DNA from: Candidatus Micrarchaeota archaeon
GTDB taxonomy: Archaea > Iainarchaeota > Iainarchaeia > JAADDC01
Assembly: GCA_027046625.1 (NCBI GenBank)
Contig: JALTXX010000003.1
Span: 10,378-74,377, forward strand
Direction of reading: 5' to 3'
Length of the DNA stretch: 64,000 nucleotides
Position 1 is the stretch's first letter, and each line of letters begins with the position of its first letter. Below, one piece after another: positions 26,894-28,665 of this stretch. A model generated the notes under the pieces. That model was given only the letters and a program-made list of their open reading frames with translations. It had not been told where the DNA came from and made no database searches. Both the position numbers and the translations under genes were made by a program.

Positions 26894-26927
26894 TGACGCG
26901 GGCAGCCATTGGAGCGACCGGAGAACC
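26894..26927 (-). other. 3' strand of the pre-16S bulge-helix-bulge processing stem
   Basis: GGUUCUCCGGUC-GCUC-CAA-UGGCUGCCCGCGUCA pairs with the leader at 28526-28559. Confidence 0.9.
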
Positions 26928-26950
26928 TCCCTCTGGTTCTGACCTCCCAG

Positions 26951-28451
26951 AGGAGGTGATCCGTCCGCAGGTTCCCCTACGGACACCTTGTTACGACTTA
27001 GCCCCCCTCAGGAGCCCCAGAATCGGAGGACCCCCTTGCGGGAGTCCCCCTCAACCAGGGCTCCCTCGGCTGGCTTGACGGGCAGTGTGTGCAAGGAGCA
27101 GGGACGTATTCACCGCGCGATAGTGACGCGCGATTACTGGGGATTCCACGTTCACGCGGGCGAGTTCCAGCCCGCGATCCCGACTGAGACCGGGTTTAGG
27201 GGATTGGCTACCCCTTTCGGGGTCGCCTCCCATTGTCCCGGCCATTGTAGGGCGCGTGTAGCCCGGGGCATTCGGGGCATGTCACCTACCGTCGCCCGCT
27301 CCTTCCTCCGGCTTACGCCGGCAGTCCCCTCTGAGTGCCCCTCGGGTCTCCCCGAGGCTGGCAACAGAGGGCACGGGTTTCGCTCGTTGCCTGACTTAAC
27401 AGGACACCTCACGGCACGAGCTGACGATGGCCATGCACCGCCTCTCAGCGTGTCGGGTAAGGTCTTCAGCCTGACCGTCATCCTGCTGTCAGCCCCGGTG
27501 AGGTGTCTGGCGTTGAATCCAATTAAACCGCACCCTCCACCCCTTGTAGTGCTCCCCCGCCAATTCCTTTAAGTTTCAGCCTTGCGGCCGTACTCCCCAG
27601 GCGGCGGACTTAACGGCTTCCCTCCGGCACTGCACGGGCCCTAAGCCCGTGCAATACCTAGTCCGCATCGTTGACGGCTGGGACTACCCGGGTCTCTAAT
27701 CCGGTTCGCTCCCCCAGCTTTCGTCCCTCACCGTCGGACCCGTTCTGGCCGAGCGCCTTCGCCACAGGTGGTCCCCCCGGGATTACAGGATTTGGCCCCT
27801 ACCCCGGGGCTACCCTCGGCCTCTCCCGGTCCCGAGCCTGGCAGTATCCCCGGCAGCCGACGGGTTAAGCCCGCCGATTTAACCGGGGACTTACCAGGCC
27901 GGCTACGGACGCTTTAGGCCCAATATACGTGGGCACCACTCGCGGGGCGACGTGTTACCGCGGCGGCTGCCACGCGCCTTGCCCCCCGCTTATTCCCGGG
28001 GCTTTTTAGACCCCGGAAAAGCCAGCCAGGATACCCCAGCTGGCACTCGGGGTTACCCCGTCGCGGTTACCCGCATTGCGGAGGTTTCGCGCCTGCTGCA
28101 CCCCGTAGGGCTAGGGCCCTTGTCTCAGTGCCCTTCTGGGGGCTCCCGCTCCCACGGCCCCTACCGATCGTCGGCTTGGTGGGCCGTTACCCCACCAACT
28201 ACCTAATCGGCCGCAGGCCCATCCTCGGGCGGATACGGAGGGATGCGGTCCGTATCCCTTTCGGAGACAGGGGAATTCCACCGCCTGTCTCCTATGGGGG
28301 ATTAGCCCCAGTTTCCCAGGGTTATCCCCCTCCCGAGGGTAGGTTGCCCACGTGTTACTCAGCCGTGCGCCGGGAACGGCCCCCCGTTCCCTGACTTGCA
28401 TGGCTTAGTCTAACCCCGAAAGCAGTGCCCTCCAGCAGGATCAACTGGAGT
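26951..28451 (-). rRNA. rrs: 16S ribosomal RNA (archaeal, unlinked from 23S)
   Basis: 5' ACUCCAGUUGAUCCUGCUGGA, GCAGCCGCCGCGGUAA, AAUUGGCGGGGGAGCAC, 3' AAGUCGUAACAAGG...GGAUCACCUCCU. About 1501 nt. End positions inferred by homology. Confidence 0.99.
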
Positions 28452-28485
28452 TGGCCGCAAGGCCGGCGGGGTTCCGCCGTACCTT

Positions 28486-28524
28486 GCTTCATCGGTTTCC
28501 CTCTGAGTCAAGCCAGGTGGTCAT
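28486..28524 (-). ncRNA. C/D-like K-turn module in the 16S 5' leader with a 12-nt guide-like segment
   Basis: AUGACCA - CCUGGCUUGACU - CAGA - GG(GAAA)CC G - AUGAAGC. 10-nt complementarity to 16S at 27070-27079. Confidence 0.55.
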
Positions 28525-28525
28525 C

Positions 28526-28559
28526 GGTTCTCCGGCCTTTGCTCTGGCTGCCCGCGTCA
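28526..28559 (-). other. 5' strand of the pre-16S bulge-helix-bulge processing stem
   Basis: UGACGCGGGCAGCCA-GAGC-AAA-GGCCGGAGAACC. Gives a 15-bp stem, 3-nt bulge, 4-bp helix, 3-nt bulge and 12-bp stem. Confidence 0.9.
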
Positions 28560-28590
28560 GACCCGAGAAATATGAGCTCGGATCCCCATG

Positions 28591-28665
28591 GAATGTGGCC
28601 GCAACCGGATGGGGTAGTTCATCGTGGGGTTACCCCCTCTCCCACCCTAACGCCATGCGGCCAGC
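28591..28665 (-). ncRNA. Single-hairpin H/ACA guide RNA at the 5' end of the 16S leader
   Basis: Lower stem GGCCGCA/UGCGGCC, pocket UGGCGUU/AUCCGG, upper stem GGGUGG/CUACCC, K-turn-like apex, ACA box about 15 nt from the pocket top. Confidence 0.8.

Follow-up and report, generated by a model that had tools for sequence, protein, structure and literature searches.

The window analysed here, the whole 64,000 nucleotide (nt) stretch of Candidatus Micrarchaeota DNA to which all coordinates refer, contains a 16S rRNA transcription unit on its minus strand, read in transcript order from 28692 to 26894. Its leader carries two modules with complementarity to the 16S rRNA that follows: a hairpin of the box H/ACA guide type and, closer to the gene, an antisense sequence set between two kink-turns (K-turns). 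The archaeal small subunit rRNA at the core of the unit (1456 bits) is the single Rfam match of its kind in the window. No tRNA genes were found in the 64 kb. The sole 23S match of the assembly (652 kb in 18 contigs, 94% complete) is on contig C11 (18340-22052, locus L002) and not beside the 16S gene and, because of this, the latter is regarded as a stand-alone unit. An original prediction, made from the letters of the window, had claimed as much. Its inventory of the unit and the positions given for it also hold, as every element listed is present on direct reading of the minus strand (Table 1), and the Nop10 gene that it placed in the window is there.

GC content is 63% in the leader and 65% in the 16S gene against 40–41% in the flanks, and the GC-rich block starts at the H/ACA hairpin. 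The TTTTAA box ahead of this hairpin is the only run of at least four Ts within leader or trailer, and transcription is predicted to start at about 28663-28667. When 41 related genomes were searched for 16S, seven assembled 5′ flanks of the gene were obtained within the family; they represent two genera, and their 16S identity is approximately 88–97%. All seven have the promoter box (as (C)CTTTTAA, ahead of the H/ACA hairpin), the H/ACA hairpin itself, a second hairpin, the antisense sequence and the K-turns. None of these leader elements is present at L018, a 16S from the neighbouring family.

Table 1. Features of the 16S unit, in transcript order, and the Nop10 gene of the same window (BHB, bulge-helix-bulge)
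Feature	Position	Strand	Details	Basis
TTTTAA box A / TATA-like promoter element	28687..28692	-	24 nt upstream of the H/ACA lower stem	
Single-hairpin box H/ACA guide (candidate)	28594..28662	-	69 nt, ends in ACA 28596-28594	
H/ACA lower stem	28662-28656 with 28603-28597	-	7 bp, GGCCGCA/UGCGGCC	
H/ACA upper stem	28647-28642 with 28617-28612	-	6 bp, GGGUGG/CUACCC	
H/ACA K-turn	28641-28619	-	GA 28641-28640, capped stem 28639-28624, GAU+GA 28623-28619	direct reading
H/ACA guide strands	5′ 28655-28649; 3′ 28610-28605(-28603)	-		direct reading
Second hairpin	28559..28585	-	GGAUCCGAG / CUCGGGUCU stem	alignment
Processing-stem 5′ strand with BHB	28526..28558	-	outer helix 28558-28545, GAGC 28544-28541, bulge AAA 28540-28538, inner helix 28537-28526	
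K-turn 1 bulged strand, GAUGA	28521..28525	-	C-stem = inner BHB helix; partner GA in trailer	
CUGGCUUGAC, antisense to the 5′ strand of 16S helix 44	28507..28516	-	10 nt; complement at window 27079-27070	
K-turn 2	28486..28505	-	CAGA 28505-28502, GG-GAAA-CC 28501-28494, GAU+GA 28493-28489	
GCCUUGCGGCC, antisense to 16S helix 27	28453..28463	-	complement at window 27589-27579; immediately ahead of the 16S 5′ end	
16S rRNA	26951..28451	-		Rfam, direct reading
Trailer GA, non-bulged strand of K-turn 1	26928..26929	-	the GGGA of the original prediction	direct reading
Processing-stem 3′ strand	26894..26927	-	inner helix 26927-26916, GCUC 26915-26912, bulge CAA 26911-26909, outer helix 26908-26894	
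Nop10 gene	5218..5370	+	PF04135, 91.5 bits	

The features of archaeal H/ACA guides applied here are those of Muller et al. (2008, PMC2377435) which, as listed there, comprise a lower stem (H1) of at least 7 base pairs (bp), an upper stem (H2) of 5–6 bp, a K-turn or K-loop, a flanking ANA and a distance of 14–15 nt from ANA to target. The H1 of the leader hairpin has 7 bp with ACA immediately after it, is 100% paired in seven sequences and shows two compensatory pairs, or four when a distant eighth sequence is added; H2 in the window hairpin has 6 bp. Invariant in all eight sequences are the parts that at the level of sequence constitute the K-turn (a GA, a capped stem, and an NAU bulge followed by GA), and the capped stem is 97.9% paired among them with four compensatory pairs. 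The distance from the first base of the 3′ guide to ACA is 14 nt in 6/6 family members. In the pocket, the 5′ strand UGGCGUU pairs with 16S AACGCCA and the 3′ strand AUCCGG(UU) with (AA)UUGGAU. The resulting bipartite complementarity, with 7 bp 3′ of the target and 6–8 bp 5′ of it, flanks the unpaired U936-C937 (5′-UC-3′) of 16S helix 31 (h31), and U936, at window position 27516, is the equivalent of E. coli 966 and yeast 1191. With all these sequence-level features present, the assignment of the hairpin as an H/ACA guide is well supported.

Structure and pairing have been conserved through sequence change. The original prediction had proposed guide–target covariation in relatives as a check, and both the complementarity and its covariation were found, with shuffles of our own alignments used as the statistic. 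In a MAFFT alignment of the seven family sequences with the structure imposed, 98.2% of cells are paired and 7/24 pairs are compensatory, and none of 500 shuffles reaches the covariation score; sliding the partners along the alignment lowers pairing to 33–50%. Addition of the distant eighth sequence (L062) gives 93.1% paired, 13/18 pairs compensatory and again 0/500 shuffles. The target itself changes in step with the guide. Position 965, immediately 5′ of the target U, and its guide base are U/A in the window and in L006, C/G in L003, L004 and L005, and G/U in L008. As L006 belongs to the genus which otherwise has C-G, this is not the outcome of one inherited event. The claim that the hairpin targets the 966 equivalent in h31 thus has structure, structural covariation and guide–target covariation behind it.

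How far the arrangement extends beyond the family was judged with two covariance models and a rule-based scanner. The family model (R1) is too sequence-specific to see far: in a 151-genome sample of the phylum it found the genome of the window and 4/5 family genomes, and 0/145 others. The scanner looks for ANA at 14–15 nt, at least 5 bp for each guide arm and an H1 of at least 5 bp, and 120 16S stretches for this work were taken from genome contigs by a scan with a standard archaeal 16S primer. It recovers 6/6 family members and gives 0/78 on reverse-complement controls. Leaders compared with their own target, mostly haloarchaeal, gave 0/31, and use of a generic target gave 2/78. One of the two is L062 (genome G159, a record titled as a Nanoarchaeota MAG), a convincing AT-rich homologue; the other, L051, was left out of the count as both long and weak. 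The broader model (R2) gave matches at E up to 0.1 in 12 of 41 relatives of G159 (the second clade, Aenigmatarchaeota-like). In 11 of the 12 the match precedes the 16S 5′ end by 77–105 nt and has a TATA-like box some 25 nt before it. One second-clade member has a 16S 94.8% identical to an Aenigmatarchaeota record.

R2 also matches 77–133 nt upstream of 16S at L070, L142, L145, L151 and L105. The match in L070 (Desulfurococcaceae) has an E of 1.4e-4, and its 3′ guide, CUCCAA, pairs perfectly with the crenarchaeal UUGGAG (as in L149 and L072), its 5′ guide being poor. L142 is from the Hydrothermarchaeales (E 0.14) and L145 from the Aenigmatarchaeota. The match in L105 (Thermococci), with an E of 0.63 and 132 nt upstream of 16S, has a long 5′ pocket and fits GGAGG-U-GC-AUGGCCGCCG near 16S nt 1015. 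Promoter, hairpin, processing stem and 16S follow in this order in all lineages examined. Three weak R2 matches in the phylum sample (E 0.05–0.8) are in coding-like DNA away from 16S and were dropped, as was L093, which is in DNA of the same kind. Separately, an H/ACA-like hairpin with another pocket is present at L177 (G192:C118:11713-11790), intergenic and away from any 16S; the second clade also has free-standing predicted H/ACA guides.

The second hairpin, between the H/ACA hairpin and the processing stem, has 8/9 stem pairs invariant and every cell paired in the seven-sequence family alignment, and is preceded by a conserved AUGRGG. Motifs of this type (AUGGGG, AUGAGG, AUGAAG) are 3–12 nt past the ANA (28586-28591 on the minus strand of the window) and occur in the family and in the second clade, and also in L070, L145 and L172. 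The form found in the sister genus, AUGAGGA, resembles a variant of box C, and no K-turn can be drawn with it. The second hairpin plus its flanks was considered as a K-turn and rejected, as there is no GA after the bulge.

Leader and trailer pair to form the processing stem. The predicted duplex (RNAduplex, −62.7 kcal/mol) consists of helices of 15 and 12 bp on either side of a 4-bp central helix, which is flanked by one 3-nt bulge on each strand, and by this modelling it is a canonical BHB site. The perfect BHB stem of the original prediction is therefore seen with its 3-4-3 geometry, and so is the arrangement claimed with it, the H/ACA hairpin being outside the BHB and the K-turn module inside. 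The same layout, 3-nt bulges with 4 bp between, is found in 5/5 relatives with trailers, though the predicted duplex of L005 has larger unpaired stretches. On the 3′ side, a 22-nt trailer after 16S is followed by the GA of K-turn 1 and then by the 3′ helix strand. In model archaea, cleavage at the BHB, a circular pre-16S and leader–trailer ligation are described as established, together with a 5′-matured intermediate on whose 3′ end the ligated spacers are retained.

The genome encodes Cbf5-type TruB_N, Nop10, Gar1, two L7Ae-family proteins, fibrillarin, Nop5 and Nep1/EMG1. EMG1 is present in 14/14 family genomes and in 0/27 other relatives in the class. Position 966 in 13 class relatives outside the family with a recognisable h31 is A in eight, G in one and U in four, and none of the four with U has the leader hairpin. 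The distribution of EMG1 fits a succession in which the guide gives pseudouridine and Nep1 then methylates it, a fit which comes from one clade.

Several observations count against the hairpin being such a guide, or against its simple inclusion in the 16S transcript. In the sister genus H2 has bulges of 2–5 nt and an irregular form, and over the eight sequences only 80% of its cells are paired. The 3′ guide includes two G·U pairs. No Rfam H/ACA or C/D family matches within 26000-29500, either at the gathering score or at E up to 10. A search for Tsr3 in this 94% complete genome was negative. EMG1 is present in none of the 41 second-clade genomes, though 11 of them carry the leader hairpin, so Nep1 is not an obligatory partner of the leader guide, and the notion of it as a universal one was rejected. 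The sample is small and its members are related (seven sequences in two genera and a single distant clade), so the shuffle statistics overstate significance. Finally, there is a T7 in the loop of the hairpin following the guide in several second-clade genomes, where partial termination is possible.

The last point, together with a T5 at the same place in L003, is what could be said for the hairpin being an independent small RNA (sRNA) gene, terminated before the processing stem, with the 16S transcribed from a promoter of its own. In the window there is no run of at least four Ts after the promoter. Only 35 nt separate the ACA from the 5′ strand of the processing stem, which must belong to the 16S transcript, and no second TATA-like box was seen; the constancy of element order among lineages also argues against a separate gene. 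The original prediction had named a terminator of the hairpin's own with a promoter downstream of it as a pattern that would speak against it; there is no run of at least four Ts between hairpin and 16S, and no room for a promoter between hairpin and processing stem. An independent gene is considered very improbable. It is, on the other hand, likely that this is a stand-alone 16S unit, transcribed from the TTTTAA promoter, whose first 70 nt are a genuine H/ACA guide for U936 that is released at the BHB.

Co-transcription, assembly of the ribonucleoprotein (RNP), modification and the fate of the products after cleavage are what we infer from the sequence, and the course of events would be as follows. 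A search for sequencing runs turned up DNA only, namely the probable source metagenome and two runs from its study. Transcription would start just upstream of the H/ACA hairpin, and L7Ae, Cbf5, Nop10 and Gar1 would assemble on the nascent leader. The tethered RNP would convert U936 to pseudouridine once h31 emerges and, in the family, Nep1 would then methylate pseudouridine 936. Since the guide is outside the BHB it would stay tethered to its substrate until the whole of 16S and the trailer have been made. Transcription of the trailer would permit formation of the processing helix and of K-turn 1. Splicing endonuclease would then cut the BHB, and the H/ACA RNA would leave with the outer stem, probably ligated to the trailer, one for each 16S. 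The K-turn module would stay on the circular pre-16S, beside the 16S 3′ end, and engage helix 44 (h44).

At the centre of that module is CUGGCUUGAC, which is invariant in 7/7 leaders and is the complement of 16S GUCAAGCCAG (nt 1373–1382). In two genomes the complementarity is 12 nt, and in L008 it includes one G·U. Across the genome, 16S is the sole site of GUCAAGCCAG and the leader the sole site of its complement. At least one 10-nt leader/16S match arose in 29% of 300 shuffled leaders, so a lone match of this length is not significant and the weight is carried by its conservation. CUGGCUUGAC ends 1 nt before the CNGA of K-turn 2 in 7/7 leaders and is 4–5 nt from K-turn 1. K-turn 2 is present in all seven as CNGA, a capped stem of 2–5 bp, NAU and GA, the loop and the stem length being variable. 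The GA partner of K-turn 1 is in the trailer in the window and in L008 (there as UCGA), whereas in L003, L004 and L006, three of the four sister-genus leaders, it is a local GA with a small hairpin. As cleavage and ligation would turn the inner helix into a capped hairpin, the two versions of K-turn 1 would then be topologically identical. The trailer of L005 has AA at this position.

The original prediction called this module C/D-like and its target the 1408 equivalent. The target stands: the antisense is invariant and the N+5 position from the D′-like box is nt 1376 (window 27076), the equivalent of h44 A1408. The double K-turn with its h44 antisense also stands, in 7/7 leaders, and a methylation guide is plausible. 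The C′-like box of the window is AUGAAGC and those of relatives AUGA[A/C]GA, which match 6/7 positions of RUGAUGA; in the seven leaders the departures are at position 5 of C′ and at position 2 of D′. In place of terminal C and D boxes, K-turn 1 has AUGACCA with GGGA, of which only the tandem GA pairs are kept, and the BHB helix closes it. One spacer of 15–16 nt is bracketed, rather than two guides of about 12 nt; the spacers of canonical sRNAs of the same genome are 10–13 nt, with about 12 typical. None of 15 C/D candidates elsewhere in the genome targets the A1408 equivalent. A free-standing sRNA antisense to h44 was sought in two sister-family genomes, and the one match outside 16S has no boxes and is embedded in AT-rich, coding-like DNA. 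In relatives, a hairpin further downstream has a loop, CUCCCUCG, which was read informally as a second h44 antisense and dropped, since the 16S of the sister genus differs there.

One explanation is that the module is a cis-acting permuted C/D guide, with L7Ae, Nop5 and fibrillarin on its K-turns, that would direct 2′-O-methylation at nt 1376 in the precursor or in the circle. The bracketing of the antisense by K-turns in 7/7 leaders and its fixed 1-nt register to CNGA are as expected for a guide, as is the retention of K-turn 1 through two topologies, and the genes for fibrillarin and Nop5 are present. C/D methylation at the E. coli A1408 equivalent has been predicted for N. equitans and S. 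acidocaldarius (PMC4644070), and archaeal proteins are described as accepting 21–23 nt spacers and half-mer guides (PMC7229835). That the site is targeted by none of the other 15 C/D candidates also speaks for a guide here. Lack of a canonical box C or D, the long spacer, the single guide and the AA in the L005 trailer tell against it, and in the sister genus a GCCAG close by is able to base-pair with some of the antisense. A guide function is a serious possibility, held at a little short of even chances.

In the other explanation the module would serve as a folding lock or chaperone scaffolded by L7Ae, in which leader antisense would hold the h44 decoding strand and helix 27 (h27) in non-native pairing until late maturation. 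It would be an analogue, in cis, of U3 snoRNA or of the yeast switch between internal transcribed spacer 1 (ITS1) and h44 which Lamanna and Karbstein reportedly described in 2011. A perfect duplex of 10–12 bp would beat the irregular native top of h44, and the leader has several conserved antisense elements without C/D boxes. GCCUUGCGGCC, separated from K-turn 2 by a small hairpin, is one of them: antisense of its type, to GGCCGCAAGGC of h27 (16S nt 863–873), is found in 6/6 family members. In addition, 9/16 class relatives have antisense of 9–14 nt to 16S approximately 865–880, in another leader segment 12–56 nt from the 16S start, and the K-turn module is absent from them. Antisense without K-turns, in this leader and in class relatives, favours a folding role. 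Two K-turns, and a fixed register to one of them, would however be superfluous for plain antisense. A lock is held as a tentative possibility, distinctly below even chances. Guide and lock fit the observations equally well and are not mutually exclusive; the two may coexist.

Three further observations concern leader antisense. Among the class relatives, loci with such antisense include L007, L010-L013, L015, L018 and L025. L070 (Desulfurococcaceae) has GGCCUUGCGGCC just before its 16S. L004 is alone in having a 14-nt perfect complement to 16S nt 1314–1327, about 75 nt upstream of 16S and after a C′-like box, with no box D following.

A bolder proposal, considered unlikely, is that leader–trailer pairing and then circularisation at the BHB are what build working guide RNPs. 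The circular pre-16S would be a self-contained, permuted C/D-type particle that methylates its own decoding site at A1408 or keeps it open, and the excised leader–trailer RNA would be the H/ACA guide for the P-site loop. On this proposal K-turn 1 would form, in the genus of the window, only after the trailer has paired with the leader. If true, it would give pre-rRNA circularisation a concrete function, and trans-acting and leader-borne guides may interconvert in evolution.

Guides embedded in the precursor of their own substrate are known from the pre-tRNA-Trp intron, which carries C/D guides. The K-turn module resembles archaeal C/D sRNAs in having two K-turns that bracket a 10-nt guide, in agreement with the N+5 rule and in being inside the precursor of its own substrate; it differs in the non-canonical boxes, the spacer length, the single guide, and the lack of a terminal stem on K-turn 1, which is closed by the BHB helix or by a hairpin. 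Dennis is said to have raised in 1997 the idea of U3-like sequences in the 5′ external transcribed spacer (5′-ETS). Like U3 and such sequences, the leader has K-turns together with several stretches antisense to small subunit rRNA around the central pseudoknot and decoding site, but it would act in cis and has no box A/B motifs. Archaea are described in reviews as being without U3.

It was claimed in the original prediction that no such arrangement was known to have been described, and this is too strong. A guide snoRNA in the 16S leader of T. kodakarensis has been published, in a passing remark (PMC4247193), and the same h31 site is guided elsewhere. Pyrococcus Pab160/Pf9 is described as guiding U922/U910 (the h31 U is at primer-based position 920 in the Thermococci record), S. 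islandicus sR435 as guiding U930, the h31 U, among eight targets in trans, and yeast snR35 as guiding U1191, whose product is modified further by Nep1/Emg1. Pf9/Pab160 is, like the leader guide, a single hairpin with K-turn and ACA that targets the same h31 U by position, but the two have no detectable sequence similarity (no Rfam match), and in the accounts at hand Pf9 is not reported in a 16S leader. sR435 and snR35 are likewise H/ACA guides for this universally conserved U with Nep1/Emg1 acting on the product, but they are trans-acting and, as far as described, not in a leader. N. equitans has one reported H/ACA RNA, which in that report is between two protein genes and not in the 16S leader, and permuted sRNAs (PMC3491384).

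The T. kodakarensis guide, Tko-19, is closest in position, being directly upstream of 16S in the published remark. It differs in its target (about nt 1015), in its long 5′ pocket, in an operon that links 16S, tRNA and 23S, and in having no reported K-turn/h44 module. We infer that it is a homologue of H/ACA Pab19, for which an unusual UGC interaction is described. In the literature search neither an h31 guide conserved in 16S leaders nor the K-turn/h44 module was found, and a leader-borne guide was met only in the Tko-19 remark.

Leader–trailer RNAs of other archaea may be relevant. Tang et al. are said to have reported in 2002, for A. fulgidus and S. solfataricus, a stable, L7Ae-binding 16S-D RNA with three stems and K-turn-type motifs, generated by leader–trailer ligation at the BHB, and reportedly described it as C/D-like and not H/ACA. 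By that description it is like what the cleaved leader here would give, namely two hairpins and a ligated outer stem, and the present arrangement offers a candidate identity for such RNAs. The leader arrangement is a broader and better-documented form of something glimpsed in Thermococcus and probably in Archaeoglobus.

Guide RNAs are usually regarded as products of separate, trans-acting genes. Here the guide for a modification that ranks among the most conserved in rRNA, at the P-site uridine of h31, is predicted to be part of the precursor of its own substrate, and leader placement of an H/ACA guide recurs in several archaeal phyla. Tethering would build in stoichiometry and timing, which may suit genomes of approximately 0.6 Mb. 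The second module provides a testable link among K-turns in rRNA spacers, circular pre-16S and decoding-centre maturation.

Other observations concern the remaining rRNA genes and the rest of the window. The 23S match spans 3713 nt compared with a model of 2987 positions, which probably reflects at least one insertion or intron, and 16S genes are interrupted in the relatives L021, L024, L026 and L062. An RNase P RNA (Rfam) is at 12568-12799 on the minus strand of the window. On the same strand, 4 nt upstream of it, is a canonical C/D box sRNA at 12804-12850 (AUGAGGA ... CUGA ... GUGAUGA ... CCGA), whose D guide has a 10-nt match in 16S, at about nt 1163–1172. Their proximity suggests that the sRNA and RNase P RNA are made as one dicistronic transcript.

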